From positions 1,302,001 through 1,366,000 of the forward strand of contig JAYWIR010000030.1 of assembly GCA_036172245.1 (NCBI GenBank): DNA of 64,000 nucleotides, in the 5' to 3' direction. Under the pieces are notes generated by a model that was not told the origin of the DNA, did no database searches, and worked only from the letters and a program-made list of their open reading frames with translations. This document shows positions 10,129 to 62,350 of this stretch, piece after piece; the first letter of the stretch is position 1, and each line of letters starts with the position of its first letter. Position numbers and translations under genes: made by a program. The stretch is from Raillietiella orientalis. Its lineage: Eukaryota.

Positions 10129-10129
10129 A

Positions 10130-10699: not shown

Positions 10700-11750
10700 C
10701 AACCCGCGTTGTCAACCGCGTGGCCCTGAGCGTCGAGGGTTCGAATCCCCACGTGGAGGATCGACGCTAGAGAAGATGGGGATGCGTCGTGGGTTTCCAG
10801 TTTACCTTGCAAGATGACGCTGGTTCAACTGTTCGGGTGCGACACTGGTTGATACCCGGTCACGCTGGAGCATTTTATTTCTAAACCTACATGTCTATGA
10901 TAGAACGTTTGATCCTGCCACGTTACTCATAACTACGGGAAGGAACCTGCCGGGAAGTGGCACGCAGGCCAGCGGGCTCGCCCCGGCAGCAGAGGGAAAG
11001 GGAAAACAAGCAAAAAGAAAAAAAAGGAAACAACATACAGTCAAAAAAATGGGAGGGGTTCGAGAAAGGATCACTGTGTGCTGGAGGGCGCCCTCTGCAT
11101 CCTTGTAAGGACGCCGGCAAGTTCCTGTTTTATGGGTCCCAGATGGGCCATATGTCCTCATGAAGAGGATAGCCAAATAGATGGTGTCCCTATCGTTCTA
11201 GTTTCCTCTGGTATTGGTCCATGCAGCCACGATCCCACCTTGTGGGCAGCAAAGTGCTGCTAGGAATGCGGCACTAGTGGCAGCTGGAAACTCCGAATGC
11301 CCCCGTTGGCTGGTCGGGATGAGAAGTCGACCCTCCCTCCGAGGTCCCTCCAGGAACCAAGGAGCTAGTCGGTTTCCTTCGAGATTTTTCCTCTGGTTTC
11401 GAAATAGAGATTTCTTCCTCCCCTCAGGGCCCCTCAGACCCTCCATCGGCGTATCATGGAACTGTTTGGTCGGTATCTCTACAGAGTGTCAAGAAGTGCG
11501 CTGCTCTCTTCAGGGTGCACCCCTCCGAGAAAATGGGAAGCGTTCTCTTAGGGATTCTCTTCACAGGGGTAAGCAGGGAGCGCGAAGCTTTTCCGGGGGT
11601 CCCTCCAGAGGAGAAATTCAGGAGGGAATTCCTTTGGGATTATCTTCAGAGAAGAAACGAGGAGCAACCCTCCTCTGGGGTGACCACCGGAGAGAATAAG
11701 GAAGAGGTTCCCTTCGGGGTTTCCTACCAAGCTTAGGAATCCAGACTTCC
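10700..11750 (+). mobile_element. tRNA-headed SINE-like host repeat, copy 1 (interrupted by a Tx1-like insertion)
   Basis: B box GGTTCGAATCC at 10738-10748. The body is shared with copies at 37.0, 47.1, 58.3 and 62.3 kb. It resumes at 11267 and ends in degenerate ~35-45 bp tandem units (about 11500-11750). Confidence 0.65.
10850..11266 (-). mobile_element. Tx1/L1-like non-LTR retrotransposon, 5'-truncated (~420 bp), in the host-repeat target site
   Basis: Homologous to the 3' part of 47186-48366. Flanked by gggtgcgacactggt (10835-10849) and tgcggcactagt (11267-11278). Confidence 0.8.
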
Positions 11751-11879
11751 TGGATTCATAGGGTGGTTCCCTCCGGAGTTACTCCCTGATTTGTAGAGTC
11801 ACATGCTCCTCCGAGTGTCGTGGAAAAGAGCTTCGTGACCGTCCTCCCAAGGGAGCGAACGAAATTCAACGAGCCAAAA

Positions 11880-14800
11880 GGAAAGAAGAAGGACAAGAAA
11901 TAAATAAAAAAACGATGAGGGATAAGGAGGGGTCTTTGGCAGCGGTCGATCTTCCCTCTCTGCAGCCTTTTCGAGTTCTCTGGAGACTTCTCGGAGCAGG
12001 TGGGGACACCGGTCCTCACATGAAGGTGGGCGACTGCGAGCGCAGCTTCAGGACGGCGCGACCCGCCATCGCCAGTGGCCAAGCCACGCGAAGGCATGTC
12101 GCACTCGAGGGAGCGTCGCAAGGGATCCTTCGCAGTTATCCCCCGGGTGCGACAGCTTCCTTGCCGGTTTCTGGAGGTGTCGTGGCACGAAAAACCAGTT
12201 TTTGGAAGCGATTCGATCGTCCTGCACGTCCGGTAGGTGACTTCCCAGAGGCGGGGCGCAGTCGCTCTTGGCACCGGAAACCCCAGCGCACAAAGAGCAC
12301 CGCTTGGTGACCTCCACCTCCAGAGGAAGCGCCGAGGCCACGTAAGGGGCAGGGATCACCAGCTCTGCAGGAAACTCAATGAAAAGTCCTGTTCCCTCCC
12401 CCCTCCCTTCGATGCAGTCTCTTGGCCGGAAACCGAGGAGTGGAGGCGCCCACTAGGACTCCCCTCGTGCGCCAGTCACCATCGCTGGAGTTTGGTCACT
12501 CTCGCGATGGTGCAGGGGAATTTTCACCCTTCCGGCTGGCCACCGTCGTTGCTTGCCTTCGAGGCAGGCAGCAGTCCTGCAGCGCCGGTTTCACTCTTCC
12601 TCATAAGGAAGAACGGATGGTAGGTGTTAGGAGGTGTCCTCCTGTCATCCATGCAGACCTTCCTGGTTGGTGATAAGGATTCCAGCGATTGTAAGAGGGT
12701 TGCTGGTGGCGGCAACCCGAAAAGCGCTACCTTGTTCCTTCGTAGGGTTATTGGCTGGAGAATGCGACCCGCAGCGTCGCCAGAAGATGACGCCATCCTG
12801 CGTTCCGCAGCTGCCGGGAGGTGGCGGTCCAGAGAGGACGCTTTTCTGACTGCATCCAGTGATCGGAAGGATCCGTCGAGATACCGCCGACAGCGGGTTT
12901 TTCCGACGACGACAGGAGTGACGTCGAGAGTGGCTGGAGCCGAAGGGCTTCTGAGGTCGCGCGTCTCCGGAGATGCATCCTGGCCGCTTGAGGTCCCCTT
13001 TCCTTCCCTCCAGGGCCCATCAATGGGAATGAAAGGCCGCAGCCGTAGAGCGCCTGCGTGGATGCCAGTATCATGCAGAGAGCGACAGCAGCAGGGAAGG
13101 GGCCAAGAGACCCCTTGGGTTCTCGGACGGAGGGCGCGTCGCTGGGGGCTGGCGGCTTCGGGCCGGCAGACTCCAGGAGCTTCCCCTCCTTCCTCCCCCC
13201 TTGGTGTCCGTCCCGCCTCCGGGCATCTCACCTCTCGGTAGCCGGTGGGACGACCAGCTGGGCGAAGCGAGATCGCCGCCGCAGTGGGTGGCGTCGGGCT
13301 GACCATATGTCAGGATCTATCCGTTCTCTCCCCATCCGAGGAGAGCTCGGGAGAGAAGCGAAAGGGGCGAAGGACCGGAACGTAGAGAGAAGCCCTCAAA
13401 GTTCAAACCCTTTTCGCTAGAGGAAAGCGCCGCTCGAGGGAGACGGGAGCGGAGAGGAAAAGGATCGAAGAGCGTTAAAAAGCAGTCACCACAAAGGCCG
13501 GCACGTCTCCGGCGACACATCCAGGATCCCCTGGAAGCCTCTCACTCCACACACGCACCGGCAAGGAGAGTCTCGCGGTCAAACACGGTGTCCTCGGAAA
13601 CGGGAAGCGTGGGCGGCGGAGGGAGGTCCATGCACAGGGACGTTGGAGCCGAGAGAAAGAAAAGCCGCCCTCCGACGACCCGAAGCACCCCTAGGAAGGT
13701 CAAAGCCGAAGGAGGAGATTCCGGTCATCACGAAGTAAAGAAAGTTTGCCCGCCGCCAGCCTCGAGGCTCGAAGAGGCTCGAGTGGTCGATTTTTTTCGA
13801 TCCCGGAGGAACGCGGGTGACTTCCGGTCTCTCCAGGAGGGAGCGCGCGCGAATGGGACGCTTCGTTTCCTGAGCTCCACAAAAAGCCCCAGAGAGGGAG
13901 GGAAGAGGAAGGGGAAGAGCTCTTCCCACTTGTGCGGGTGCCGGCCGCTCCTGGAGAAGTGCGCCCCTCCTCGCGCGCACCTCGTTTGAAGGCTCTATCG
14001 GGCCGCCGCCGCGGGCAGAGTCCATGCCAGAGGAGGCTGTCAGGGAAACCGAGAACCTCCGTGTCAGGTCTGGCGCCATCGATTTCTCCATCGGAATGGA
14101 GAGGCCCCCAAGGAGTCAGCGGGAGCGCCGCCTCCCTTGGTCTCCGCCTCGCTCTCCCGCGAGGTGGAGTGCAACGCTGCCTCCGCAGCGAGCGCGAGGA
14201 GCCGTAGAAGCTTACTGTCTGTTCAGGATGGGGGATGCGGTATCCAGGAGACGGGGAGGACAATGTGAGCAGCAAACTAATTTCGATAGACCTCCTATAT
14301 CTATCTGCAGATCTCTTCATTTCTTTTGTCTCATTCCGGAGCTTTCGGCATCCGAAGGCCCCGAGCTGCTTGGGGAGGGGAGACGCCGGGCAGGGCCTGC
14401 ATCCCCTTTCGGCTCAGAAAGATGGACAAGCGGAGGGGGGAGGGAAGGGGGAAGGCAAGCTTCGGTTCCGCGTCTTGGAAGAAACGTCGCCGTGACGCGC
14501 GCGCGAGCGTCAGTTCGCTGTCTTTTTTTTTTTGATTCCAGTCGGGAGGAGGAAAGGGGTAAAGAACGGGAAAAAGGGAGTGGGGCCGGGGGCTTGTCCT
14601 CCGAAGAGAAGATGCAAGGACTAGTCGAGGGATCCTCTCATGGGAACTTCGAGAGGGGAGATCTGGAAGAGATAGAACGCAGCACTAAGTAATGGTCCAT
14701 CGTGGTGGACCCTCCTCCCAGCGGTGATATGTGACGCAAAGAGGCTGGCGAGGAGCGGGATGTCTCCTTTACACGGACGGGGCAGTGCTGCGGTCGCTCC

Positions 14801-15060: not shown

Positions 15061-15299
15061 CCTGGTTACGGCAGTCTCCGCAGATTGCCCCTGAAGTTCC
15101 AGGCTGCAGGGGGAGGATGAGTGTTCGATTTTCGCAAAATATTCCCTTTTTTTTTCTTTTTTTATCTCGCCGCCATCTGTTCTTGGAGCCTTAATGTCTG
15201 CTTGCCCTTACCGGACCTGGCCCTGAAGATAACCTGTCATTTCAAAAAATACGGTCATCCCTTGAACAGCGCTTCCGCAACCGCAGCCGCTGAATCTTC

Positions 15300-24469: not shown

Positions 24470-26192
24470 CGGATCCCAAGAGCAGCAAACGGGAACGCCT
24501 GGGGGGACAGGGGGCACTGGAGTCCTGGGTTGCCACTTTTCAGGTGCTCTCAGAGGAACTCTGTCCGCTACGGCAACTCTCCTCCTATCAAACCGCTGGG
24601 AGATATCCTGCAGGATTGGACTCAATGGACCCGGATAGTCTTTACTCCCCTTGCCGCAGCACTCTCTGCTCTCAGGGTAAACGATGACAGCAGCCAACCG
24701 GCAGGGTGAGAATTGTCCTGAAGAATTTCGGGAGTCCCGAAACTCTTGGGCGGCTGGAAGGACGAGCGAGTTGGAGGACGGCTCCACTCCTCGTTCCTGA
24801 GCGAAGGGACTCTTTCAGTGGAGCGACCTGCTCGGTTTATCACCCAGTCATGCTGAGTTGTTTACTACAAGAACATACATATGTAGATAAACATACATGT
24901 GTGGGGCCATCGGCCCCACATTATCCGACAATGCTGGGAACCTGCCGAGTAACCGGCACTCAGGCCGGCGAGGTTCGCCTCGGCAGCGGAGGGGAAGGGG
25001 GCAAACAAAAAGAAGAATAAAACAAAAAAATATATGCAAAAAATTGGAAGGGTTAGGGAAAGGATCATTGGGAGCTGGAGGGCGTCCTCTGCATCCTTTC
25101 CAGGATGCCGGCAAATTCATCCGAGTGTGTTCCAGGTGGGACCATCTTGCTACCGTCCTCATGAAGCGCAGGACACAGCAGATGGCGCCGTCCTCCTCTC
25201 GCGCCCTAGCTCCAGGCTGCCACGATCCTGCGTAGGCAGCAACAAAGAGCTGCTAGGGATGCGGCAGGCGAAAGGACATGGCGCACGAAGAGGCGCTTCA
25301 TCACATCCCTGGGATTGTCCGTCGATGCACCAAGGCCCGTTGCGTAACTCAACCACTGAGACCGGAGGGCAACACAGTCTACAAGCAGGTGAGGGAGCTG
25401 GGATTCCCGTTCACGGCTTAGGCAACAGTTGGGGCCCACAGCCCCCCAAGATCCAGTGGGATCAGCGGTCGTTGCACGGGAGACTCCAGTGCAACATCAG
25501 AGGTGCCGACTCTTGCCACTTCAGGGGGAGGACCCGGTTGTTCTTCAGCACTGGGGACCTCTCGAGGTCTTCCTGTAGCAGCTCACCCCAGCGCAATAAT
25601 TCCTTCGGTGGGACACTTGAGATCACAGCGTTCGTGAGCTGGCCTTTGGTCCAACCATCTAGTTTCCTCGTCTTCTGACTGACTTCGCAACTGGCCTCCC
25701 ATTTGTCCAGCTGGTTACTGCCCAGGTGCTCCCAGAGGGAAGGCAGTGCCGCGGCTAGGGAGGTTTTTTGAGTCCACGCACAGGTGTCGACCTGTTCGGT
25801 GTGCCCCCCTTAGAACTCGCAGTCCCCTCCCTGAGTGAGGACAGTCGCGTGTTTCCACCGCACGGAAACGGGATGTTCTGCTGTTTTGGCACTGGGGACT
25901 TCAGCTCAATCAGCTCAGACACCTGGTTTACGGAGGTTACCCTGGTTTACCTGGTCATTCCCAAAGAGTTTGAGGGCAGTGCTGACTGCAGTACCCTCGG
26001 TGACTTATGTCTGAGACTCGTCTCGGCGTTCCGCCACCCGGAGGGCACCACTTTGGATTTGCTGCGGTGCTTCTTCACGCAAGGAGGGTTTACGACAGAC
26101 GCCGTGGTTTCACACACGGATGCACCGGAGCATCTATTTCTCTTGCAGGAATCAATGAAGCCAAAAGGCTCACCGATGCCAATTATTACATT
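24470..26192 (+). mobile_element. L1-clade ORF2 C-terminal relic acting as host, split by the 24837-25787 insertion
   Basis: 24470-24836 plus 25788-26192 together match the reverse complement of the uninterrupted 38425-39240 segment. Confidence 0.65.
24837..25787 (-). mobile_element. Tx1/L1-like 5'-truncated insertion with a 13-bp target-site duplication
   Basis: TSD cgacctgctcggt (24824-24836) / cgacctgttcggt (25788-25800). Encodes GPNCCLSRERESQLPHLLVDCVALRSQW. 3' hairpin at 24900-24920. Confidence 0.85.
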
Positions 26193-26194
26193 AG

Positions 26195-27090
26195 GAAAAA
26201 GAGGGACAGCCAGCAAGGTCCATCACGTCCACAAAAGGGAAGAGGGATAAAACAAAACTAGAACAAAAAGAGACAAACTATAACAAACAATAAAAACTAG
26301 CAAAAAAAAAAGATTAGATGGGGGGAAGGGAAGGGGTCACATTTCGTGTTGAGTGAGGTCTCCTCATCCGTTGAAGGATGAGGCGAACCCTTCCTTCTTC
26401 CTTTCCAGGTGGGGCCACCTCAAAGCTATCCGCAGGAATCGGATGGCGTGCAGGACCCTTCCTCCCCCGTCATTCCGTCTTCTTTCGGCGTCGCACTTCG
26501 CCGCGGCGACCTCGCGCAAGCAGCACAGCGCTGCGATTGCGTCTGCGGAAGTCATGGCGTTTCTCACGAAGAGGGGCCTCAAAGAGTCTCTGGGATCGTC
26601 CATGGGGTCAAGAAGGGGCGCAGAGAAACATTCCCACGAGCCCCGGAGGGCGATGCACTGCATCATGAGGGGGGGGAATGTTTCCTCCTCCCCACACCTG
26701 GAACAGTGCCGTGATGCGCTTCCCCTCGTCCAGTGGTGCCGATGCGCATTGCACGGGAGATCCCAGTGCAGTATCAGCAGCGCCGCTTGCTGCCATTTAA
26801 GGGCATCAGCTTCCTGTCTATAAACACGGGGGGCGCTTCCAACTCTTCGGGCCGAATGGATAGGAGTTCTCGCCAACGTTCCAGTCCTTTGCAGACAGTT
26901 CTCACTCTTGCCGCGTCAGCCAACCGACAAGTAGTCCAGACACCGATAGGCTTCCTAGGGGCCGAGATCTTTCAGGAAACCTTCCATTTCTCCAATACGC
27001 AGGTGCTATTTATGATGGACTGTCCCCGGAAGGCTTTGTGGACCCAGAAAACCTCCTTTGCTGAGACACTGTTATCCCTGAGGCATAGCT
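26195..27090 (-). mobile_element. Tx1/L1-like ORF2 C-terminal fragment (zinc-binding zf-RVT-like region)
   Basis: ORF 26364..26876: LKWQQAALLILHWDLPCNAHRHHWTRGSASRHCSRCGEEETFPPLMMQC..LRGSW. Close homolog at 37725-38420. Confidence 0.85.
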
Positions 27091-27094
27091 AGGG

Positions 27095-27845
27095 CAGTCA
27101 TCAGCCTGCAAGATGGGAAATGAACTGTGAGATCTCAGGAATAAAGAAACTGTTGGGATACTGGATGGCGCGTCTGCTGGCTGACGCTTCCACCCCGTCA
27201 CCCTTGACAAGGGACTTCTCCTCTGGGAAGGATCTCCTCGAAATCCTGTTGGATGAAATGGAGACCCCCACTATTTCCCTGGACAGCTTCATACTTCCCC
27301 TGAAATGGCAGTTGCGACTGCCGCTTCGGTCCATCCCATGCAACGCACGATCCCATCACTGGACCAGGGGAAGTAAGGCCCCAGACTGTGCCAGGTGCGT
27401 TGAAAGAAAAACCTTCCCCTACACCTACTTTTGAAATGTGTTGCTCTCCGGTGTGTGTGGGAATGTTCGGCCACGTTCCTGAACTTCCTAGAAGATTGAC
27501 TACCCAAGAACCTCATTCAGACGCCTCTTCACTGTGACGGGATCGCCTGCCTCGGCGATCGCAGCTTCGTGCTGAGTACGCGGAATCACAGCTGCCAGAA
27601 TCCTCGACTACAGAAGCTGGAACATCTGAGAAGCCATGTCCTTCTTATCGTTTGTGAGGGTCGCGAAGAGATGGTCGCACCTGAGGCCATAACCAGGAGG
27701 AACTTGCCGGCATCCTTGAGATGATACAGAGGCCGCCAGGGAGGGCTCTGTAATCCCTTCCCTTCCCCTCCCTCCAAACATTTTAGTACTTTTTTTGTTT
27801 GATATTTATCTTTTTATTTTTGTGTCTGTTTCCTTCCCACTGATT
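27095..27845 (+). mobile_element. Tx1/L1-like ORF2 3' fragment, head-to-head with the previous copy
   Basis: ORF 27120..27434: LKWQLRLPLRSIPCNARSHHWTRGSKAPDCARCVERKTFP, then gaacttgccggcatcctt and a T-rich UTR. Confidence 0.75.
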
Positions 27846-27949
27846 TCCCTGCGCAGACCTCTTCTGGAGACTGATTTCGAGCAGAGAATTCTTCCGGAAC
27901 ATTCACGCGGAGATTCCGAGTCCACCTAAAAGACATCTCGTTCTCTGTC

Positions 27950-37029: not shown

Positions 37030-37284
37030 CCCGCGCCTGCGGCACCGCGGCTGCGGTCTCCGCTCGTGGCACCGTGCGCCGAGGGTTCGAATCCTCACGT
37101 GGAGGATCGACGGCGAGAACGTCTTTCTTTTCGAGTTGCCCCCGCAAGATGACGCTGGCTGGCCTATTCGGGTGCTGCACTGGTGGAAGCCGGAAGCCAC
37201 CGTTGACCGGTCGGGATTGGAAACTGACCCTCCGCCGTCCCTTCTAGGAATCAAGGAGTCGGTTCCCTCCCAAGCGTAAGAGGT
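37030..37284 (+). mobile_element. SINE-like host repeat, copy 2, with an EMPTY target site
   Basis: B box at 37084-37094. The sequence gggtgctgcactggt|ggaagccgg (37170-37193) joins the head directly to the downstream segment that follows the insertion in the other copies. Confidence 0.7.
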
Positions 37285-37720: not shown

Positions 37721-37724
37721 AGGA

Positions 37725-38420
37725 TTGCAACGTTGGGGAGAACTCCTATCCATTCGGCCCGAAGAGTTGGAAATGCCCCCCGTGTTTATAGACAGGAAGC
37801 TGCTCCCCTTAAATGGCAGCAAGCGGCGCTGCTGATATTGCATTGGGGGTCTCCCGTGCAATGCGCGTCGGCACCACTGGACGAGGGGAAGCGCATCGCG
37901 GCACTGTTCCAGGTGTGGGGAGGAGGAAACATTCCCCCCCCCCTCATGGTGAAGAGCATCTCCCTCCGGGGCTCGTGGGAACGTTTCTTACGTCCCTTCC
38001 TGACCCTATGGACGATCCCAGAGACTCTTTGAGGCCCCTCTTCGTGCGGGACGCAGCCGCAATCGCAGCGCTGTGCTGCTTGCGCGAGGTCGCCGCGGCG
38101 AAGTGCGACGCCGAGAGAGGGCAGAGAGATGGGGAAGGGGGGGTCCTGCACGTTATGCGCTTTTTGAGGATAGCTTTGAGGTTGTCCCACCTGGAAAGGA
38201 AGAAGGAGGGACTCGCCGGCATCCTTCAATGGATGCGGAGGCCTCACCCACCACGAAATGTGATCCCTTCCCTTCCCCCCAACTCATTTTTTGTTTTGTT
38301 TTTGTTGTTGTTTTGTTGATCTTTATGGTTTGTTATAGTTTGTGTTCTTTTTGTTCTGATTTTGTTTCATCCCCCTTCCCCTTCGTGGGCGTGATGGACC
38401 TCTCACCCCCCCCCTTCTTT
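37725..38420 (+). mobile_element. Tx1/L1-like ORF2 C-terminal fragment
   Basis: RTPIHSARRVGNAPRVYRQEAAPLKWQQAALLILHW... is nearly the same peptide as in 26364..26876, in inverted orientation. Confidence 0.85.
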
Positions 38421-38424
38421 CTAG

Positions 38425-39240
38425 TGTAATAATTGGAATCGGTAGGCCATCGGTTCCATCTCCATCGATTCCTGTAGGAGAATAAAAGTCCCGGCGCACT
38501 CGGGTGTGAAATGACGGCCGCTCCTCTTCAGCCCGCTTTCTGAGAAGAAGCGTCGCAGCAAATCCGCAGCGGTGTCCTGCGGTCGACGGGTCGATGGAGC
38601 GAGTCTCCGCCACAAGTCCTCCAGGGCACTGCAGTCCAACAAAAGGTGCGAGAGCTTCTTCTTCTTCTTCAAGGCGAAGCTTTATGGTGGCGCTCCACCA
38701 TGGCGCAAATGCTGAATCACATTTGATCTCCCCCCACCTAAGACAGTTCGGGCAGGAGCTTCCCTGGAAGCCAGGTGTCTGCGCTGGTTGCACTGGAATC
38801 CCCTGTGAAGAAACAGCAGAACATTTTCACCGGACCGCGAATACGGAGGTTTCTACAGGGGAGTGACCACGAGTTCTTTGGGGACACAGCAAGCAGCTCA
38901 CTCCACCGAAGGAGTCCCTTCGCCCGGGAACGAGGAGTGGAGCCGTCCTCCAACTCGCTCGTCCTTCCAGCCGCCAAAGAGTTTCGGGACTCCCGAAATT
39001 CTTCAGGACAATCCTCACCCTGTTGGTTGGCTGCTGTGATCGTTTACCCTGAGGGCAGAGAGTGCTGCGGTAAGGGGAGCAAAGACTATCCGGGTCCATT
39101 GAGTCTAATCCTGCAGGATATCTCCCAGTGGTTTGCATAGGAGTTGCCGTAGCGGACGAAGTTCCTCTGGGCGCTCTTCTAAAGTGGCAACCTAGGACTC
39201 CAGTGCCTCCTGTCCCGCCAGGCGTTCCAGTTTGCTATTC
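38425..39240 (-). mobile_element. L1-clade ORF2 C-terminal relic, tail-to-tail with the previous element
   Basis: SCPNC and LSHLLLDCSALEDLWRRL zinc-binding motif. Uninterrupted counterpart of 24470-26192. Confidence 0.7.
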
Positions 39241-40402
39241 TTCTGGCTCGTCAGGGAAGGGATCACGAGTTCTTCGGGAGGCACCCCAACCGTAGGAGGA
39301 GCTTTCCTGAATTCCTGGGGTGGTCCTTGAAGAGTCGCACGCACCTTCGGGTGGTCTGAACAGTGGTGAAGAACTTCGTGGACCCTTGGCGAACTATTCT
39401 TCAGCGCTTTGCGAGCCAAAAAAGGAAAAAGAAAAAAGGGTTGGAAAGAAAGCAGCGAAAGCAGAAGAACTCCAAGGGATTTTTCCATTATCATTTCTTT
39501 CCTCCCTCTTGCCAGCTGTCGAGGACGGACGCAGTTCTCTGCGGATTCCGGAGACGCGCTCTTGCACGTTTCCGTGCAAACGGTTCACGCTCAGGCATCA
39601 GCCGGCAATCGCTTGGAAGTTCAAAGATTTTCTGCATTCAAGCTGCAGAGGAGCTGGAAGAAACCTGCACCCCCTCGAGGGGGACGAACGAAGTCAAATC
39701 GCGCTCGTCTCTGTGCTCCGACGCTCAGGAGCAATCGCACGGTTCCAATTTCTCGTCAGAGCGAGTGCCTGATGGACGCGAAGGGGTCCTTGGACGCTGC
39801 GCTCCCGGACGGGATCCGCTCTCGCGCAGCTGCGTCCGCAGCGAAGCCGAGAGAAGATTCGTCGAGGAAGAATCCCTGCAGAGCCCTCTCCTCGTCACCA
39901 TGGACAGCGAACCTCCCAGTTCGCTGCTCGCCCATCGCCAGCACGGTCGCCGTTCCTGAAGACGGAAAGCTCCTCGTCCGTTGGCGAGAATGTGGCGCCC
40001 ATGCGGCGCTCGTTTGTGCAAGAAGAGTTCGTGTTCTTCCTGTGGCCTCTCCTTTATAATTGCACATTTGAGTGGCATTTAAGATATGCTTTCGTTTATG
40101 AATGCCACAAATGTTTGCAATGTCCGTAAATATGCAGCATTTTGTAATGTGGTAAGGGTCAGTAAAAAAAAAAAAAAAAAAAGCGAAATAAAAATGAAAG
40201 TTATAAAAATTATTAAAAATGAAGAGAATTACCATAGTGCAGAGTCTCCATAGTCACTTTATTTACTAATAATGGGATTCTTTTTTAAAAAATCAATGCA
40301 CCTTACGATAATCCCGAAGAAATATGCACCAAATTTGGGATTAAAGTCCTCTGAGGCCGCTGGTGACAGTTTTCACATCTGACTTACTGCTGCTGCCTCC
40401 TA

Positions 40403-44200: not shown

Positions 44201-46605
44201 CGGCACTGAGGAACGGCAAACATCTTCCAGAAAGAATTTTAAAATTTATCCCCTCATCCATCTTCCGCGGGAAAGTCTGAAATCCCTTAATCTTAACTCC
44301 CTGATCCTTTAATAAAACTCCTTAAATCCGTTTGATTTGGACTCCTTAATCTTTACTTATTATTGAAAAAGTGAGTTTTGGTGAGAATGGCATCTCTTTT
44401 ATCCGTCCTCAGGAGACGCCGAACGGACAACTTGAGATCCGGCGCTACCCAAACGCTCAGGAAGGAGTCGTACAGCGGGAGCAGCCTCCCTGGCTTGCTC
44501 CGAGCTTTCCCTTCGATAAAGAGCGCGTAATCCACCACCCAAAAAAAAAAAAAAAAAATCTTCGGGTCCTCACAAATGATCGACTTTCTAACAAATTGCA
44601 TGGGTGCAGCTAGCAGACGCGGATGAGACGGGAACCTCTGAATGTACCTTTGCAGTGGAATGTCAAGGTTTCCCGGAACGATATCCTGTGTCCATTTTTT
44701 AATTCATTCCGACGAATCCTCAATCCCTTTTGTTATCCTCTACAGGCTTGTGCCACGACCAGCTAGAATTAAGAGTATGTTCCCATATATAAAGTCTTCA
44801 ATAGTGAAGTCCTTTGAGCATTCTTGAGAAGACCATTCGCAAGTATCGCCGCCGCGTTCGTTAGGAAGGAATCTTTCTACTTTAGGGAGCAACGTCAGTT
44901 TCCTTGGTAACATCTCGTTCTCCATCGGGCTTATTGCTTTAGGAAGAACAGACGATCACATCCATAAGAGGATCGGGCTGCAAAGCGGGAGCTCAAAATA
45001 GTGCGCCATGGTAACCCATGGAAGCAACAGAGATCATGATCGCCTACGGTCACGAAAAAACTCAGCAGACTCACGAAAAAACTCAGAAAACAAGGGGTAT
45101 TCCCCAGTCAGATGGCCAAGGGGTGTCGGGAATTTGCCGCACGTGCTTCTCGAAGGATCCAGGCTGGGTCAGGGATGGAGGCGCATCCCTGAAGCACTCC
45201 AGCTCCCCAGTGCTTCCCGGCGTGTCCCGTTTAAGCAGCTGTTCCCTTCTCCAGACTTGCAAGCTGCCTTCCTGCTGGCGGTTCTCCGTCACCGCGTGAC
45301 AGCAGCAGTAGCTGCGAAGGCGAAGGCATGGTGTGACCGTCTCTTCTCGGACAGCCTCCTGTGATTGCTATTTCCGAACTAAGATGGCGGACGCACCAGC
45401 CACCCTCTTATTCCTTTCCTACGCGACCCTTAGCAATCATTCTGAGTAAACGATAGACCTCATTGTCTAGCTATTCATCGATTGATCGACCGACCCCTTC
45501 TTGTTCCTGTTTCAAGCGAGAGGCGTTCCTATGGTTTCGGTTTCTCTTTAACTGCACAAATGTCATGTCAGAGAAACGGACCAGAAATTCAGAATGAGGT
45601 CAGATGTTACGAGGAAGCCTTCAAAGGAAGGTGCAGGCATCGTCAGCATCTCCTGAAACGTAGTCTTCAAGGAAAGGTATGCGAGCCTTGAACTTTTCTG
45701 ACAGCAGCGCACATCCAAAGTCTTCGAGTGACTGCACCGCAAACTCCAGAAAACCTGAAACGCCCTCTCGGTGCAAACACTTTGCTGGTTGCTTAGATGT
45801 ATTTCAAGCTCTGCTTCTACCGCGCCCTATTCTCCAAGTATTGGGGTCGTTTCTTACCTGTCAGCTGACCACAGAGGGTCTTTTCCGAGCAACTCTCGTC
45901 GAAGAATCCTGCTCAAGTCTCTAGAAGACACGACCTCAATGTAAGCTTATGAAGAGCTAATTTGAGCTTCAAATCTCCAAGTACCAACGTGCGAAATACG
46001 GGATGCCTTGGTTCCCATGGCAAACTTTTCCGACTGTTGCCACAAATATTTGAGTCGGTAAACAAAGAGGGCACACAGGACTGAGATTTCGTGCTTTCAG
46101 CAAGATGGATATATCGCTTCCCACACATTTTTGTCCAGAGCTTCCAAGTAGCTCCGGAAGGAAGATGAAAACAGATGAAGAAAAAAACGATTTCCTCTTG
46201 CCCACTTTTCTTCAGCTGTTTCCCAGGTGTTAGGGGACGAGCAGTCAGCCGTCCAATGTTTCCATTACAGCCTCCCGAGGATGCTGTATGATGTATCCGA
46301 GCTACTCCTTGCGAATTTTCGATTTCCTCACCACCTCGGGATTTCTTGAGTCGTAGGATCACGGAGACCCTAAGAAGACGCGGTCTAGTTCTTATCATGT
46401 TAGGGGTGGTCAGTCCTTTAGAGACGAAGCGGAAACCCAGCCTCCTTCTGTGGCACTGCCTCTTCTGAGGCATTCGCATGGTTGCTGATGGTTGGTGGTG
46501 CACCTAAAGGTGCGTCTAAGGATGCGGTCTACAGATTCTTCCCGCCTTCCACACCTGCATTCGAGGTCAAGACTCATCCCAGATGAGAGGTTCGTAGGTG
46601 GCAGA

Positions 46606-46707
46606 AGCACTTCCGCCCTCAGTTCCCCACGAGCAGCATCTTTTCCGTGTTTTTCATCAGGACATGAGTTAACCCAGCACAGACAGGATAACTTGTGGAA
46701 TCGCCAG
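46606..46707. repeat. Diverged 102-bp direct repeat, copy 1
   Basis: Gapless alignment with 51589-51690. Confidence 0.75.
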
Positions 46708-47059
46708 GTACCAAATCTGCGAGTCCGTAACTCCCGTGGTCTGTGTTTTAGGAAAGTCGAAAGAGACAATCGCATCTGAAGATTTTCCAGACGAGTACAT
46801 AATGCCTCTTTTGGGAAAAGATTTTCTTCAGTGATGATCAACTGTGTTTCCGTCTGCAAGTAATCATTCTTTAACAGCTCACCTAAGAATTATGGAGCTT
46901 ACCAACTGGTCCAACAGAACATTGGAATGTGGAATGAACGCTCAAGCCGTGTAAACAGCTTGAGCGGAATCTTCTCCAAACTCGCACGTGTTATGAAAAA
47001 AAAAATTCCTATCAGAGATGGTCGTTACTCCTTCAGCAAGAGAAATCTCCGCGCACAGT

Positions 47060-48700
47060 ACCACTCGTTGCCGGTTCGAATCCCCAAGTGGAGAGCCGAC
47101 ACTAGAGAAAAGGGGGATGCGTCGTGGGTTTCCGGTTCATCCCGCAGGATGATGCTGGTTGGTCCCGTTAGGGTGCGGCACCAGTTGACACCCGGTCACC
47201 TCAAGGAGTTTATTTATAAAAAATAAACGTCTGTGACAGGACGTTTGATCCTGTCACGTTGCTTATAACTACGGGAAGGAACCTGCCGGGAACTGTCACG
47301 CAGGCCAGCGGGGTTCGCCTCGGCAGCACAGGGAAACGGGAGACAAACAACAAGAAAAAAAATAAAACAAAAAACATACAGTCAAAAAAATGGACGGAGT
47401 TCGGGAAGGGATCACTGTGTGCTGGAAAGCGTCCTCTGCATCCTTGTAAGGATGCCGGCTGTTTTATGGTTCCCAGATCTTGACGCTGTTCTCATAAAGA
47501 GGACAGCCAAATAGATGGCGTCCCTGTCGTTCTGACCCCCTCTGGCGTTGCTCCATGCAGCGACGGTCCCGCCGCGTAGGCAGCAAAGTGTTGCTAAGGA
47601 TGCCGTCTGCCGACGTTAGGGTGCCGCGCAGGAAGAGACACTTCGAAACGTCTCTGGCATCGCCGCCTGGGGTTCCAAGGGTCGCAGCAAAGCGTTCCCA
47701 AGGGGGATGAAGGGCAACGCAGTGCACTAGGAGGTGCGGGAGGGATTCCCTCTCCTTGCACCTGGCACAGTTCGGGTCCACCCCTCCCCACCGTGTTTAG
47801 TGATGCCGACGGGCGTTGCACGGGAGGCCCAGAGAGTGCAGCAGCATGAATGCCGACTCCTGCCACTTTAAGGGGTGGGTGCGGGTGGCTCATGAGAACC
47901 GGGGACCACTGCAGGTCTTCGTCCGGAATACGCAGTAGCACGCCCAGAGCAAAAGTCCACGAGGTCGACCAATCAGGGTCGCAGCGTCGTTGAGCTGACC
48001 CGTCGTCCACTCGCCCAGTTCCCATTGCATCACCTTATTCCTTATCATAAGAAGATGCAGATAACAATGGCATCTTGCATCCGAAGCAGCCGGAGCTGGA
48101 GATAATCTGCAAAGCTCGCCAGCCAGCGTGTTTCCACAGTAACCTTCCATCTAGTCTTAAGGCTGCTTCCGTGTGTTCCCTGAAGGAGGGCAGCACTGCG
48201 GCGAGGGAGGTTCTGCTTGCCCACGCACTCTTCACTGGATCTTCCAGGATCTCCCGGAGCGCAATTGACGTCTCCTCTACGTGCGCAGTTGTGGTTGCAC
48301 GCGTAGAAGAAACGTCTCACCTGTTCTGTGCTTGACTCCTGGATCCTCGACCACGTGCGAACAGTTGGGTGCGGCACTGGCGGAAGCTGGAAACCGCCGG
48401 ATATTTCCGTTGACTGGTATCGGGATTGAAAGTCGATCCTTTGGGGTCCCTTCCAGGAATCGAGGAGGCGTTTTTTTTCGAGGTTACCCCTCCGATTGTG
48501 AAAATGGAGCTGTACCATGGAGCTTGTTGATACTCCCCTCTCCTCTCTTCGGAGCTTGCCTCTCCTGAGTGTCACAGAAGAGCGCTACTCCCTTCGGAGG
48601 GAACGTCCTTCATAGAAATTTGGAGGCGTTCCATAGGGGTTCTCTTCAAAGGAGGAAACAAGGGCCTTTGCGTCCCTCGCTGGTTTCCTTCGGAGACAAC
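47060..48700 (+). mobile_element. SINE-like host repeat, copy 3 (interrupted)
   Basis: B box at 47073-47083. The host resumes at 48367 with gggtgcggcactggcggaagctgg. Confidence 0.65.
47186..48366 (-). mobile_element. Tx1/L1-like 5'-truncated insertion (~1.18 kb) in the host target site
   Basis: DPNCARCKERESLPHLLVHCVALHPPW. TSD gggtgcggcaccagt (47171-47185) / gggtgcggcactggc (48367-48381). Hairpin at 47233-47257. Confidence 0.88.
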
Positions 48701-51588
48701 ACACTTCACATCTGGAGAGGACTAGATTGGTCCATCCGCTAGGTCGAAGGTTGTAGAGAATTTCGATGAATTTCAAGAATGATTTTTAAGGACTCGGTCG
48801 TGTTCAGGTCAGGGACGTAAGCCATTCGATCCAATTTCTGGTATCTGCCTACTCTGTGGAGGATTCCAAGTCTTCCAGCGTGAGCTCAGCTAGATGGCCA
48901 TGTCCAAGGGAACTGTTTACGTGGGAGTCGGTATCTTGAGCAGTCTAACCGCGAAAGATGTTCTCTGAGGAAATGCAAATCTTCCGAGCTGCTGTGATTG
49001 GGGTTGTCATTTGTCATTTTTTTTCCTGGATAGTTCCTGGAACGGTTCACGCTGCACCCCCGTTCGAAGCGGATGCTTCCTGTGGCAGAAAGTACTTCCT
49101 CGGTATTGATATTGCCTACGTCATCTCGTTTCACTGCATCTTTTGAGGCTTCTTCATTATCCAATCTTATTGGTGTTTTGTGTCGGGCTTCTGCAACCCT
49201 CCCCCCCCCCCCCCACGCTTGTCGGCCACTGGAGCACGTCAAGTTAGTTTACTCTTCACCACGATGAGCTTCGCAAACTGTTGTCAAGGAAGATTGAGTC
49301 GAGGTGTCAGCTTACGGGAACGGATGCCCTATCTTTTTTTTTTTTTTTTCATACTTGGAACGGACTCAGCTTCCCGCGCGACTCCATTTTTCAAATCTCT
49401 GCTGTGAAAAAACAAGAAACATAACACACTTTAACAGATCTGCGTCGCATCTATTTTGGTGATCGAGTTCAAGTTGCAAGTATCGTTTCACCTCCCAGGC
49501 TGGATGAGCATCCTCAAGATCAAGAGCGGGTCACCGAAGAGCCGGGTTGCCAAAAGGGAAAGACCGCATATGAACAGGAGATTTCCAGAACGACGGTTCC
49601 GTTACCAGGTGCGAACACGGCAGGCCAGAGTTCAGAGTTGAACTTGAAAACATTGCTCCGCCGGAGAAAACGAATTGCTCGTCCGAGTTTCCTTGGCCAC
49701 GGCATGGTTGGTACACTGAGAATCGTTGCCGCCGGCCGATGTACGTTGTGCGTTGGATGGCTTCGCTTCTCCTCGGCAGAAAGTCGGAATTATTTCGAAC
49801 GCCGACGTAATCAATTGCGCAGCTAATTTTCCCATTTTGTGATCCTTTGCTCTTAAGATGGCCACTCGCGTAATTCACCCACGGGCACGTCATCTAAATA
49901 TGTGAGAAGAACTCATCCAGGTCATTCCGCACCCACAGATCCTATACGGATAAAGCATAGGCTGTGCATAGGTGTTTATTAAATGGATGCTTTTAATTAG
50001 AATGTTTTCAGAACTTTTGGTCGCACGTGCTGTTTCGATATGCATACGTAGGTATATGAAATAAATATATTCATATGCATACATTCTCACCGTGTGTTTC
50101 TCTCCGCGTATAGGGAGCTTTGGTAATTGGGCGCCGCCACCCAATGGCGGAACTGCATTTCTTGAATAGCCGATTTTTGCACCTGAATTTCACAGTATGT
50201 GCACATAAACATAAGGGATGTGAGTATATGGGCATGCAGGGAATATCCCTTGGGAATTTGCGCTTGAGGATTCCGACTGTTTGAGAAATGCGTGTTTGAA
50301 ATGATACTGTGACGATTTAATGATGTAATTGAGGGAGATGAGGTTCCTGTCCGTGTGAGACGATTCCGTCGGTCATCTGCCGGCGCCACACGGCATCTAC
50401 TGTGGTGGAGAGAACAATTTGAGACCCTCCAAAACAGGAAGAATCTTTGCTTGATGCCTTTCTTTCATATACAACTTTCTGGCTCAAGTGTACTGAGGAT
50501 CTTCGGTGCAGTCCGAACACTCCAGCAACCTTCCCATAGATGTTCGGAAATTTCTAGCCTCGATCTATTCTTTCTCATCAATCACAACTGCTTCTGACTT
50601 CTTGCTTCTTTGATCTCATCCGTTTCTAAAATGAGCTTCCCTTCTGGAAGGGAGTATTCTTAGCTGGAAGATTCTCGAAAACTTTGCATTCGCAAGTGCT
50701 GGACAGGTTCCCTGTTGTTATCATGAATCCTATGTGATGGACCAAAGGCCCCGCCGCGGTCGGATTGCTTCCTTGTAAGGGCGTCGGTCTTTACGGTGCT
50801 ACCATCACACAGAATCTTTGGGTGTTTCAAGATCACCCTCTCTTTTTCGGTGGCTGCTATCCGGAGAACACAAATGTAGAGGAATTACATCAATGTGCTT
50901 TCGAGCGGCAGTTGCGAACACCAAGAAAGGTACACGAAAGTATGTAAATGGAGAAGACACGTTTTTTTCTTGTTACGGAAAACATGAATGAAAGTGTAAT
51001 CGGTTCTGATCCTCTCGTGTTTACAGGAGAATTTAGGATGAATCAAAAACACAGGACCCCATTTAGGCAAATGGCTAAATATATCTTGGATCCCACAGAA
51101 AATAAAAAAAAATTCAACATGAGTTGTTTCTAAAAGAGAATTTTTAGACTTCAGATGAAGGTAGATTGCAGGTGAGATGCTCCACTAATAGAATTAATGC
51201 CTAGGGTTGGAACCTTCCCTATTCCGATATGAGAACCGTTGGTCCTGGTGATCTCGGGATCTTTCTCTTCCACAACCTCCACCACCGCGATCGAAATCCA
51301 GATGGCGCCAGAGCTTTCGTGATTTCCCGCCTCCTGCTATCCTTGCTGCATTTTACATCCCACAAAGTTCAGAAAAATTAATCTCTTCCATCCAGAACAC
51401 GTTAAAATGAGATTCTCAGAAGCAGAGTCTGCATTGTCATTCACGCTTGCATCAACGAGTTGCTGCAGATCCCAGTTTCAGTTTCCCGACTTCAGGAAGT
51501 CGGTGATGAAAGTTCCCTGACTTTTTAGCTCGCGAGAGGATAATGTGCAAATGCCGGAAGGAAAAGCATCCCATTCATAGGTGACATC

Positions 51589-51690
51589 AGCACTTCCGCC
51601 TTGCGTTCCCCACGAACAGCATCTTTTCCGTCTTTTTCGTCCAGACATGCGATAGCCCAGCACAGAAATGACAACCTCTGGAATCACCAG
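51589..51690. repeat. Diverged 102-bp direct repeat, copy 2
   Basis: Partner of 46606-46707. The minus frame is open here (LVIPEVVISVLGYRMSGRKRRKRCCSWG). Confidence 0.75.
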
Positions 51691-58269: not shown

Positions 58270-59290
58270 GCGCTGGCGGTCGCGCCGCTGAGGTGCCACC
58301 AACCGTTGCGGGTTCGAATCCCCACGTGGAGGATCGACTGTAGAGAAGATGAGGGTGAGTCTGGGTTTCCAGTCCATCCCGCAAGATGACGCTGGCTGGC
58401 CCATTCGGGTGAGCTGCACTAATTGACACCCAGTCACACCGAAACGTTTATTTATAAAAAATAAACGAACACGTCTGTGGCAGGACGTTTGATCCTGCCA
58501 CGTTACTTATGAATACGAGAAGGAATTTGCCTGGATCTGGCATGTAGGCCAGTGTGGCTCGCTCGGAAGCACAGGAAAAGGAGAGACAAACAAAAAGAAA
58601 AAAAAAAAAGGAAAAATACAGTCAAAGAATGGGGTGAGTGGGTGGGTGGGAAGGGATCACTGTGTGCTGGAGGGCGTCCTCTGCATCCTTGTAAGGATGC
58701 CGTCAAGTTCCTGTTTTATGGTCTCCAGATGGGGCCATCTTGACTTGCAGTACACTGATGGAAGACGGAAACCGGATGCCTCCGTTGACTGGCCAGGATT
58801 GACAGCTTACCTTCCGCAGTCCCTTCCTGAAATCAAGGAGCCGATTCCCTTAGGGGTTTCCCTCCGGTTGTCAAAATGAAGCTGTTCCCTCCCTCGGGGG
58901 AAGACCCATAATCGCGTACCATGGAACTGGTTGATACCCTCTTCGGAGGTTTGCCTCTCCAGAGTTAAAAAGCGTGTTGCTCCCTTAAGGAACGTCCTCC
59001 AGAGGAATTGGGAAGCGTTTCTTTGAGGTTCTCTTCAGAGGAGGAAACAAGCAGCGATTCCCTTGCGGGTTTCCTTCGGAAAGGAAATTCCAGGAGGAGG
59101 AGAACGATAGGAGGAGAGAGAGAGAAAGAAGGAAGAAGGAGGAGCGGATCCTTTTGCGGTTTCCTTCGGAAAAAAAATGTGCAGCAGTACCCTCCGGGGG
59201 TTCCTTCAGAGAGAATAAGGGAGTTCCAGGTTTGGGTTTCCCTATCAAGCATAAGAGGGAAACCTTTCTTCCCCCGGAGCCTTCCTGGGT
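58270..59290 (+). mobile_element. SINE-like host repeat, copy 4 (interrupted), with tandem-unit tail
   Basis: B box at 58311-58321. The host resumes at about 58747. Degenerate ttccttc(a/g)ga tandem units at about 58985-59290. Confidence 0.65.
58424..58746 (-). mobile_element. Tx1/L1-like 5'-truncated insertion (~320 bp) in the host target site
   Basis: Same 3' terminus as the other insertions, perfect hairpin gtggcagga-cgtttga-tcctgccac (58477-58501), degenerate TSD. Confidence 0.8.
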
Positions 59291-60732
59291 TCTCCCGGGT
59301 GTTTCCTCGCATGCCGAGAGCCTGGAGTACGTGACTAATTTGCAGCTGGATGCGTTCGGGAAGTGCTCTTTGACTGACGTCACACCAAAACCTACCGAGC
59401 CCACTAAGTCTTTGCTCCCTACAGCTTGCGTGCTTGTCCGAGAATCGGAGGTGCCTCCCAGCAACTACCCCAGTACGTCGCGTTTACTTTGCCATTGAGC
59501 CATGACCATGTCATCCTGCGCACGTCTTGTTGCTTCGTTCCGGAAGAGACACCAAGAAAACACCGTTCTTCACGCTGTGAAAGCATTCCGGTGCAGCTTT
59601 CTCGCGAGTTGGATCGTCCGATCTGCAGGGGAATTTTTTGCGACCCGCGTTGGTGTGCACGCGAACAGCACATGGTGGCCTGGACTCCTCCCGTCCAGAT
59701 CTTCACATCGAGCAAACAAGAGGCCGACGTATCCGACACGCTGCAGGTGTGCAAAAACATGCTGCCCAGGGAACGGAAGGAACGCTGCTTTGCTGTTGTA
59801 TTTGTCGAGGCAAGAAGAAAACACCCTTACTGCATCCAGGGTTCAATTTCTTTGTTGTCATCCTTGCGATTCCGGGGCGGTCTTCGAGAAAGCAGACGAA
59901 TCCTGGGGGAGCTTCGAAGAAGGGAGCTCACACATCCAGAAGAAAAAAACAACAGCAGCACGCACACGCACAAACAGCTTTCGAGTTTCTCCAGGATGGC
60001 GGCGGCTGGGAAAACAACTGCATTCCCTGTTCTCGCGGACTGATAAGAAATCGAATGATATTGAATTTTGCATTTCAGGAGTTCCCGGAGTTGTGAGGAT
60101 TCCCGACGTCGGAAAAGGAAGAGAGGTGATGTGCACGAGGCAGGTGGAATTGCTCTGGCTTCAAGCACCGGTGAAATTCGGTGCAGCTCTTGTGGCGGTA
60201 AAATTGCGTTTCCATCGCAGCACGTAGCTGAAACTGAAGTCAGCTGAAGGGTGCTGTCCAGGATGCCAGTGGCGCTGCCTAGGCTTCTTGAAATATTCTC
60301 TGTGTCGCACGAGGGTCCAATGAAATGGGGAAATGCATTCACCGGGAAGAAACATGGAAAGCAGTCCATTGGGAAACCTGGCATTTGTGATGATGGCCTG
60401 CACTCTTGGCAACATTCTCTGCAGGGTGTGACATAGCAGCAGCCTAACTGAAGACTTGACCTCACTTTGGTTCTTTCATTTGGGTTATGTCTCGCTATTT
60501 TTCTTCCCGCTTTCGTTCGCTTAGGAGCTCACTCAGCTCTTTGATACACTGTTCCCATGCTACTCAAAGTCAACTGCGTGTCAACTCTTCAAGTTCCTCC
60601 TTCAAGCTCTTCAAGCATCCTGGGAGGAGACGACCTTATAAATCCAGGAAGGCTCCGGAGGGAGGAGTCCATGTCCCTCTTACGCTTAGTAAGGGGACTC
60701 CGAAGGAAACCACCCATCCTGGTTGTCTCCTA

Positions 60733-61290
60733 TTTCCACCTGGACATGCCGGAACATTCATTAGAATTCAAAAGAAACTTAAATTGTGGTGGGACACGTG
60801 GTGGTTCTACCACACTCCGCTTGTGCGTGGACCTTCCGGGTCTTCGGTGAGCAGACCTGCGGGGCTCACCTCGACAGCGAAGGATGAGGGAAGAAAACAA
60901 AAAGGAAAGAGTAAATAAAAATCTTTGGAATGTTCGTAAAGGGGTCACTGCCCTCTGGAGGGGGTCTGCATCCTTTCCAAGATGACAGCAAAGTGCATCC
61001 GAATAGGTCTCAGGTGGGGCCCATCCTTCCACTATCCACAGAAAGCGAACTGCGAACTGGACGGCGTCCTTCCCGTTTCTTCCCCTGTCGGCTTCTCTCC
61101 AGCCCACCGCAATCCCGCGGATGCAGCAAATAAGGGGCTGCGGCTAGCTGCAGGGTGTCCCTCACGAAGAGGAGCTGTAAAACGTTCCTTGGAAAGGTGC
61201 CAACCGGGATTTGAAAGGCTCCCACAGGGGCCGGAGGGCAATACAGTCCACAGGTGAAGATTCGCGTTCCTCGTACCTGCGACAACCCTG
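60733..61290 (-). mobile_element. Tx1/L1-like 3' fragment, another subfamily
   Basis: Terminal motif tttccacctggacatgc, hairpin at 60785-60814, and the ctggaggggggtctgcatcc ORF end homologous to the 25 and 47 kb copies. Confidence 0.7.
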
Positions 61291-61309
61291 AAGTCTCAAC
61301 CTCTCCAGC

Positions 61310-62350
61310 CCCTCTCGCCTTGTCAGTCTCTTCGGGGAGGAACCCCGAAGGGAGACTCCTTATTCTCTCGCGAGGAGCCCCCCGAGGGAGCCACTATTTC
61401 TCACTCTTCGCCGGAGGGAACCAGCAAGGGAACCGTTCCCTGTTTCCTCCTCTCCTGAAGAAAACCCCGAAGGGACGCTTCCCAATTTCTCTGAAGGATC
61501 CCTCCCAAAGGGAGCGGCGCACTTCTTGACACTCTGGAGAGGCATCAAACAACCGGTTCCATGGTACTCCATGGTACTCGACGGATCCATTTTCTCAACC
61601 GGAGGGGAATCTTGAAGCTGCTTGATTCCTGGAAGGGACCTCGAAGGTCCAGCTTCCAATCCCGGCCGGTGAACGGTGGCATCCAGGGGTTTCCGACTTC
61701 CACCAGGGCTGCACCTCTTTCTAAGCGGCGGCCTCACGCCGGCTGCATCCCTAGCAGCACTGCGCTGCCTAAGCGGGATCGTGGTCGCATGGAGCAACGC
61801 CAGAGGCCAGAACGAGTACAGGGGCGCCATCTAGTTTTCTGTCCTCTTCTTGAGGACAGCGTCAAGGTGGCCCCATCTGGGAACCATAAAACAGGAACTT
61901 GCCGGCATCCTTACAAGCATGCAGAGGGAGCTCTCCAGCACACAGTGTTCCCTTACCGAACCCCTTATTTTTTTGGACTGTACGTTTTTTTTTTCGTTTT
62001 GTCTGTCTCTCCTTTTCCTGTGCTGCCGAGCGAGCCACACTGGCCTACATGCCAGATTCCGGCAGGTTCCTTCTCGTATTCATAAGTAACGTGGCAGGAT
62101 CAAACGTCCTGCCACAGACATATAGGTTTAGAAATAAAACGCCCCAGCGTGACCGGATGTCAACCAGTGCCACACACGAATGGACCAACCAGCATCATCT
62201 TGCAAGGGGGACTCAAAATCCACAACGCCTCCCCCCCCTTCATCCCTCACCCCATCCTCTCTGACGTTAATCCTTCACATGAGGATTCGAACCCGCAACG
62301 CCTGGTGGCACGCGCGAAGATCGCAGCTACGCGGCCGCCAACGCGAACGG
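61310..62350 (-). mobile_element. SINE-like host repeat, copy 5 (inverted, interrupted)
   Basis: Reverse B box ggattcgaacc at 62283-62293. The downstream segment and tandem tail lie at 61310-61715. Confidence 0.65.
61716..62162 (+). mobile_element. Tx1/L1-like 5'-truncated insertion (~450 bp) in the host target site
   Basis: TSD accagggctgcacc (61702-61715) / accagtgccacac (62163-62175). Hairpin at 62091-62115. AATAAAA near the 3' end. Confidence 0.82.

Follow-up and report, generated by a model that had tools for sequence, protein, structure and literature searches.

Probable use of a dispersed, apparently SINE-like repeat as a fixed insertion target by a dead LINE family in Raillietiella orientalis

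The 64,000-nucleotide stretch of DNA analysed here, called the window below (Raillietiella orientalis, contig JAYWIR010000030.1, positions 1,302,001 to 1,366,000, forward strand), holds five dispersed copies of a repeat that measures about 480 bp. The copies lie in both orientations and carry a putative B box of the kind found in RNA polymerase III (Pol III) promoters. Four of the five are interrupted at one nucleotide, ...CACTGGT^, by an insert that is always antisense to the B-box strand. The inserts are the 3' end of a retrotransposon without long terminal repeats (non-LTR), or long interspersed nuclear element (LINE), an identification that follows from the anatomy of the insertions together with conservation at the protein level and the features of the 3' untranslated region (UTR). 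According to BLAST and MAFFT alignment, the host repeat comprises a left arm of 100–160 bp, a 15-nt target and a right arm of 300–320 bp. The host copies (c1, c2e, c3, c4 and c5) and their inserts are laid out as follows.

10717..10834, plus strand: left arm of c1, with the B box at 10738–10748
10835..10849, plus strand: left duplication of c1, GGGTGCGACACTGGT
10850..11263, minus strand: LINE 3' fragment of c1, 414 bp, with the LINE 3' end at 10850
11264..11278, plus strand: right duplication of c1, GAATGCGGCACTAGT, whose bases ATGC overlap the LINE sequence
11279..11583, plus strand: host right arm of c1
37039..37268, plus strand: c2e, the copy with the empty site; B box 37084–37094, target 15-mer 37170–37184, presumed nick position 37184^37185
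47055..47185, plus strand: left arm and left duplication of c3; B box 47073–47083, duplication 47171–47185
47186..48366, minus strand: LINE 3' fragment of c3, 1181 bp; 3' UTR 47186–47411, stop codon 47412–47414, frameshifted coding remains up to 48366
47232..47258, minus strand: hairpin in the 3' UTR of c3, with a stem of 9–10 bp and the loop UCAAACG
48367..48696, plus strand: right duplication (48367–48381) and host right arm of c3
58290..58423, plus strand: left arm and left duplication of c4; B box 58311–58321, duplication 58407–58423
58424..58744, minus strand: LINE 3' fragment of c4, 321 bp
58745..59080, plus strand: right duplication (58745–58759, TTGCAGTACACTGAT) and host right arm of c4
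61408..61716, minus strand: right duplication (61702–61716) and host right arm of c5
61717..62162, plus strand: LINE 3' fragment of c5, 446 bp, with the LINE 3' end at 62162
62163..62338, minus strand: left arm and left duplication of c5; B box 62283–62293, duplication 62163–62177

The left junction (...GGT|TGAYAYCCRGTCAC) is identical in all four filled copies. When the insert of c3 was used as a BLAST query, the three other inserts were all recovered from query base 1 (at 10850, 58424 and 62162) and ended at query positions 418, 293 and 452; that is, the inserts are collinear from a shared end and have four different right ends. The first-pass annotation of this DNA, made from the sequence alone, had reported four antisense 3' fragments with a fixed 3' end at one junction and had put their lengths at about 420, 1180, 320 and 450 bp. 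The junction indeed proves to be the same nucleotide in every case, and the exact lengths are 414 (c1), 1181 (c3), 321 (c4) and 446 bp (c5). It was also right that a sequence is repeated on both sides of the inserts, since a decayed duplication of about 15 bp is found in all four filled copies. At up to three mismatches the target 15-mer GGGTGCGGCACTGGT has seven matches in the window against 1.21 expected, a number reached in 0 of 100 shuffles, and these seven are both flanks of c1, c3 and c5 and the one uninterrupted target in c2e; the flanks of c4 are too decayed for the three-mismatch threshold and were placed by alignment. By manual count, the 15-mers flanking each of the four inserts agree with one another at 11, 12, 9 and 10 of 15 positions, and such partial agreement is expected of old duplications. 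The duplication of c3 may reach 18–19 bp; duplications of 12–19 bp are the usual size for LINEs with an apurinic endonuclease (APE). At the 5' junction of c1 there are 3–4 bases of microhomology (ATGC). The fifth copy, which the first-pass annotation had taken for the empty site, is continuous through the target from 37039 to 37268 (...GGGTGCTGCACTGGT GGAAGCC...) and has the 15-mer once.

The four filled copies represent four independent target-primed insertions and not one amplified composite, because no two copies have related sequence outside the limits of the host repeat, which makes the filled copies separate loci, and because the inserts resemble each other more than the hosts do. Over the shared stretch of about 300 bp the inserts are 78–85% identical to each other; the host left arms are 63–78% and the right arms 67–78% identical pairwise, so that the host copies are old. 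In five of six pairs divergence is lower between the inserts than between their hosts, and in the remaining one (the left arms of c1 and c4) the two are equal. The alternative, in which a single unit of host repeat and LINE was amplified or duplicated and then shortened by internal deletions, draws something from the high occupancy (4 of 5 host copies are filled) and from the insert quartets, which mildly favour the grouping (c1,c3)|(c4,c5) (12 sites, compared with 8 and 3 for the other two groupings). These quartets, however, hold no signal congruent with the host, whose informative sites give flat, star-like quartets (3:2:1 and 5:4:4). Each truncation point abuts its duplication exactly, and the composite would therefore need three independent deletions that each end precisely at the start of the right-hand 15-mer; it also has to accommodate the unrelated outer flanks, hosts that are more diverged than their inserts, and an intact empty site. 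We regard this explanation as extremely improbable, and the condition under which the first-pass annotation would have been given up, namely a single composite amplified and then deleted internally, is contradicted by the unrelated flanks, the lower divergence of the inserts and the star-like host quartets.

Three further models were considered and rejected. Transduction of the left arm at the 3' end of the LINE does not agree with the arms being contiguous in the empty copy and with the right arm following every truncation point. Template-switch chimeras, of which the U6-L1 type is an example, are opposed by the downstream flank, where in all four cases the host repeat goes on in collinear order, so that such a model would need target specificity anyway. 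A SINE master (SINE, short interspersed nuclear element) that already carried the LINE would have to be replaced by four different masters to account for the four truncation points.

The fixed 3' end, the variable 5' truncation, the duplicated stretch of some 15 bp and the presence of an empty site together bear out the signature of target-primed reverse transcription that had been proposed for these inserts. We consider it probable that a dead LINE family, the main family below, was inserted independently by this process at one position of the dispersed repeat. The B-box strand was nicked between ...GCACTGGT and GGAAGC..., and the same strand, cut after ...CACTGGT, served as the primer. Synthesis of the cDNA began at the nick with the complement of the 3' end of the LINE RNA, so that every insert begins with TGACACCCGGTCAC and has the antisense orientation relative to its host. 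Either the reverse transcription or the joining of the 5' end broke off at differing points, leaving inserts of 321 to 1181 bp, and a cut of the second strand some 12–19 bp upstream duplicated GGGTGCGGCACTGGT. Presumably the reverse transcriptase (RT) recognises the structure of the 3' UTR, as in a "stringent" LINE, and the target may be read beyond a GGT^G core, over more of the 15–30 bp of the site. This extended reading could be performed by the endonuclease or by another DNA-binding part of ORF2. Alternatively, read-through transcripts from resident copies might carry host sequence and pair with the nicked target; pairing of this kind has been named as something that helps target-specific elements with R2-type co-transcription to insert precisely (PMC4494074, which is cited here and below, like PMC5006619, from excerpts of its text).

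Apart from its five B boxes the host repeat is strongly decayed. Homology among the copies begins about 50–60 nt upstream of the B box, an 11-nt motif (GGTTCGAATCC) that is exact in 5 of 5 host copies (plus strand: 10738, 37084, 47073 and 58311; minus strand: 62283), as the first-pass annotation had claimed for all five. One further match with one mismatch lies at 4535 (minus strand), outside any host copy, and the total of six in the window compares with 1.36 expected, six being reached in 0 of 100 shuffles; queries with the host repeat revealed no sixth copy in the window. Among the blocks of the host alignment that do not vary, the B box is the longest, while the rest of the repeat is about 22–37% diverged between copies. 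An intact B box amid such divergence fits a SINE-like nature and source copies under selection for a Pol III promoter; judged from its sequence, the repeat appears to be a SINE-like element with a conserved Pol III B box. The conservation may reflect promoter selection in the source copies or a motif that is still bound and maintained.

The description of the repeat as tRNA-headed, by contrast, was not substantiated, the B box being the one feature that speaks for it. Rfam returned neither a tRNA nor a SINE family in the window at the gathering cut-off or at E-values up to 10, and no tRNA match at E up to 10 over the whole window or over 36990–37140. ARAGORN made 0 tRNA calls at its default settings; at the noise-level setting -ps85 it made 14 calls in the window, which covered 2 of the 5 host heads, and a rerun with -ps80, restricted to the heads after excision, yielded a single call among the five, with a poor cloverleaf. 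Inspection of the host heads by eye gave no match to an A box. The 3' end of the repeat, ...GGTTTCCTTCGG, has no A-rich tail. Duplications flanking the host repeat were sought in the full-length copies c1, c3, c4 and c5 and not found, the longest exact word shared by the outer flanks being 7 bases in c1, with none of 7 or more in the others. The right arm of c2e is recognisable for about 81–100 bp only (37188–37268), after which the sequence is unrelated; this copy lies about 450 bp from the LINE fragment of the repeat X2 described below.

The coding character and the strand of the insert follow from conservation of the antisense-strand frame at the protein level. Pieces of this frame are conserved among c3, two copies of a fragment A and the relatives B and D, all within the window, and a metagenome protein (P0001), with the shared blocks PRD..LFVR, AALCCLR and LAGIL.RMQRT. 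P0001 is the single relative returned by an exhaustive HMMER search of 1.84 billion protein representatives with the LINE tail; it is a protein of 87 aa (E 2.4e-8) encoded on a JGI metagenome contig of 2870 bp. A word-based search among longer proteins gave no match with either one fragment or alignment A1, and scans of genome contigs and viral contigs with alignment A3 gave no relatives. A 20-nt block taken from the 3' UTR and scanned against metagenomes gave six loci, each matching 20–24 pattern bases only, and these are chance matches. The sole Pfam signal of the tail is zf-RVT, to which the CX2CX7HX4C motif of c3 gives rise (E 0.024, 15.7 bits, under the cut-off of 27.5). The ESM Atlas matches fall in unnamed clusters, of which one set (4 of 30 matches) has zf-RVT in 25% of its members and is no more than a lead. 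Profile search of the PDB with the tail yielded a chance-level match only (E 0.55), and the AlphaFold2 model built on alignment A1 (mean predicted local distance difference test score 50.8) was too poor for fold comparison.

The 3' UTR is 226 nt long in c3, where the frame ends at 47412, and lacks poly(A). Its hairpin lies 55–80 nt from the end, has a stem of 9–10 bp and is intact in c3, c4 and c5, three of the four main-family copies; one stem position has changed in a compensatory manner, being A-U in c3 and G-C in c4 and c5. Fold z-scores lie between -2.8 and -3.4 in four of five sequences, counting the main family and the relative B.

The label L1/Tx1-like used in the first-pass annotation was not substantiated by the window, and the clade of the LINE may be Tx1, L1 or another. 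A C-terminal Cys-His motif, CX2CX7HX4C, which is one mark of the Tx1 clade, is present in c3 at 47719–47769 (minus strand), but it is shared with L1 and other clades and does not discriminate between them. Another mark, sequence-specific choice of target, is seen within the window, all four copies of the main family having used one nucleotide, as the first-pass annotation had maintained. No match to Exo_endo_phos was found in the window, where all copies are 5'-truncated, and the longest covers about 320 codons from the C-terminus, so that an RT domain is not to be expected even in that copy.

Besides the main family, the window contains related LINE fragments outside the host repeat. One of them is B:

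24837..25786, minus strand: relative LINE B, about 67% identical in nucleotides to the main family, with the homologous 3' end TTATCACCCAGTCATGCTGAG

Its flanks, GCGACCTGCTCGGT (24823–24836) and TCGACCTGTTCGGT (25787–25800), form a duplication of 14 bp or longer, and at the place matching the main-family hairpin it has its own, different hairpin of 9 bp (24900–24920). B interrupts one copy of a composite repeat, X1 (24478–26896), and the inverted copy X2 (39242–37713) is empty there, the counterpart of the duplicated site being 38888–38901 (minus strand). B represents a second clean target-primed insertion, into a different target that also ends in ...GGT^G. An older fragment, E (about 60725–61100, LINE sense on the minus strand), appears to join its flank at ...CCTGGT|TGTCTCC, although this end is less certain. 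The flanks of the three related families thus end in CTGGT^, TCGGT^ and CTGGT^ and their wider contexts differ, which resembles the target switching known among Tx1 families (PMC4494074). Fragment A occurs twice, at 26364–26915 (minus strand) and 37813–38319 (plus strand), and fragment D, which is older and has a decayed CX2C...Y motif, lies at 27093–27930 (plus strand), the piece conserved as protein being 27093–27434.

The composite repeat X itself is present twice in inverted orientation (24478–26896 and 37713–39242). Its part at 24478–24845 is about 90% identical to 39242–38880, and the part at 25984–26896 is about 81% identical to 38636–37713 and corresponds to the C-terminal and 3' UTR part of LINE A. 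Both copies share the same LINE 5' end, and X was therefore copied as a unit.

The common ending of the flanks in the three families, together with the position of B and E outside the host repeat, gives some ground for an explanation by preference rather than specificity: the endonuclease might need little more than GGT^G, the host repeat being a favoured or abundant carrier of it, with many copies of the main family elsewhere in the genome. Only four main-family insertions were examined, which leaves room for such a view. Nevertheless, the window has 36 occurrences of CTGGTG, every 3' end of the main family falls within a host repeat, and of the five sites that the host repeat offers, four hold the four inserts, all oriented alike. 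A core of 6 bp cannot account for this concentration, and we find the preference explanation unlikely.

The distance between the B box and the insertion site calls for a comparison with the Dictyostelium element TRE3, whose insertions lie downstream of tRNA genes at a distance of about 100 bp (PMC5006619). In the filled copies 101, 102, 102 and 120 bp separate the B box from the nick downstream of it, the 3' end of the LINE points towards the box, and this box is the longest stretch without change in the host alignment. On this reading the LINE might be guided by the Pol III machinery, tethered to factors that occupy the B box, with the exact base about 100 bp downstream chosen by a weak preference for local nick sites. 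The same nucleotide was nevertheless used in all four copies, whereas the range given for TRE3-A is 14–228 bp (PMC5006619). The spacing of 120 bp in c5 did not alter the sequence used, and in the empty copy the box and the site are 90 bp apart. What is observed is one sequence position at spacings of 101–120 bp and not a scattered window set by distance. TREs moreover end in poly(A) (PMC5006619), which the main-family LINE lacks, and no B-box match with up to one mismatch was found near the insertion sites of B or E. We think it quite unlikely that the LINE is TRE3-like and Pol III-guided outside the dictyostelids, with a whole SINE family as its harbour and nicking at a preferred GGT^G about 100 bp downstream, and a tether of the TRE3 type in general appears no better founded. 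If this were true, it would be a Pol III-guided LINE, and its source lineage is one with hardly any LINE proteins in the public collections of protein sequences.

Several observations weigh against our preferred interpretation, that of a LINE family with a fixed target in the host repeat. The sample consists of four insertions in one window that was chosen for the pattern. No RT or endonuclease domain was detected in the 348 open reading frames (ORFs) of at least 80 aa in the window, and with one protein relative only, the identity of the LINE relies on the insertion anatomy, a weak motif match and the conservation at the protein level. The paired 15-mers match at 9–12 of 15 positions only, and in c1 the hairpin is lost (z-score +0.5). 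The location of B and E outside the host repeat means that specificity can extend no further than the main family and does not characterise the LINE group as a whole. Within the main family, however, the presence of 36 CTGGTG sites, with all four inserts in the host repeat and in one orientation, implies that the short core cannot explain the targeting.

The window as a whole is not vertebrate-like in composition (CpG observed/expected 0.83, TpA observed/expected 0.47, GA/TC about 1.22, GC about 50%, almost no microsatellites). The only Pfam match at E up to 0.01 among the 348 ORFs was TMEM43 (0.0077, below its cut-off), and no ORF of the window looked like a coding exon. Base composition prompted a comparison with Sarcocystis neurona, whose genome is reported to contain numerous old LINEs and DNA elements (PMC4337577), but nothing was found that links the window with this genus. 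The segments 1–207 and 9929–10135 form a direct repeat of 207 bp with 97.6% identity, far younger than the rest of the window; it begins at base 1 of the window and may be longer, and no retroelement protein domain was found between its copies. Short repeat pairs were also noted at 7344–7476 and 8691–8822 (83%) and at 46591–46707 and 51574–51690 (82%).

Target-specific LINEs are well known from ribosomal DNA and small-RNA genes, examples being R1, R2, Keno, Mutsu and Dewa. The main family resembles them in its insertion at an exact nucleotide of a multicopy sequence and in its independence of poly(A), but the multicopy genes that they target are functional and are held uniform by selection, whereas the copies used here are dispersed, decayed and 63–78% identical. 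Closer parallels are found in the Tx1 clade, where Tx1 inserts in the piggyBac-type Tx1D of Xenopus, the crocodilian Tx1-Mar in Mariner-N4_AMi, Tx1-9_AMi in Harbinger elements, and Tx1-8_Crp and Tx1-4_AMi in LTR elements (PMC4494074). As in our case, these families occupy a fixed position and orientation in another interspersed repeat, have many 5'-truncated copies and include related families with switched targets; their copies are likewise old, with 85–87% identity to the consensus (PMC4494074) compared to 78–85% in pairwise comparison here. The targets reported in the excerpts are, however, DNA transposons and LTR elements, in contrast to the SINE-like repeat with its Pol III B box, and Tx1 is described as an animal clade (PMC4494074), which our LINE resembles by its insertion habit, the window containing no RT or APE sequence. 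TRE3 and the main family have in common an insertion point some 100 bp past a Pol III B box and an ORF2 with a zinc-finger tail, but TRE3 insertions scatter over tens to hundreds of bp and end in poly(A), as opposed to base-exact insertions without it (PMC5006619).

The first-pass annotation did not recognise the pairing of this LINE with its host repeat as described. The principle is in print for the Tx1 families (PMC4494074), and that part of the claim cannot be upheld; the part that stands is that no report of a LINE targeting a SINE was found in a search of the full-text literature, which extended to neither paper supplements nor Repbase nor Dfam. The habit of using another transposon as a fixed target is therefore a known one for LINEs, while the type of target, a decayed, dispersed, Pol III-type repeat, is new.

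Target-specific LINEs show how selfish elements can persist without damage to genes, and their endonucleases and 3' UTR recognition signals serve as models for programmable insertion. From this point of view, the occurrence of a related family at a second GGT^G target within the same 64 kb is of value, because a genome-wide study could separate the nick core from the extended recognition. The recovery of one relative among 1.84 billion protein representatives indicates, in turn, that the retrotransposons of the source lineage are essentially undescribed at the protein level.

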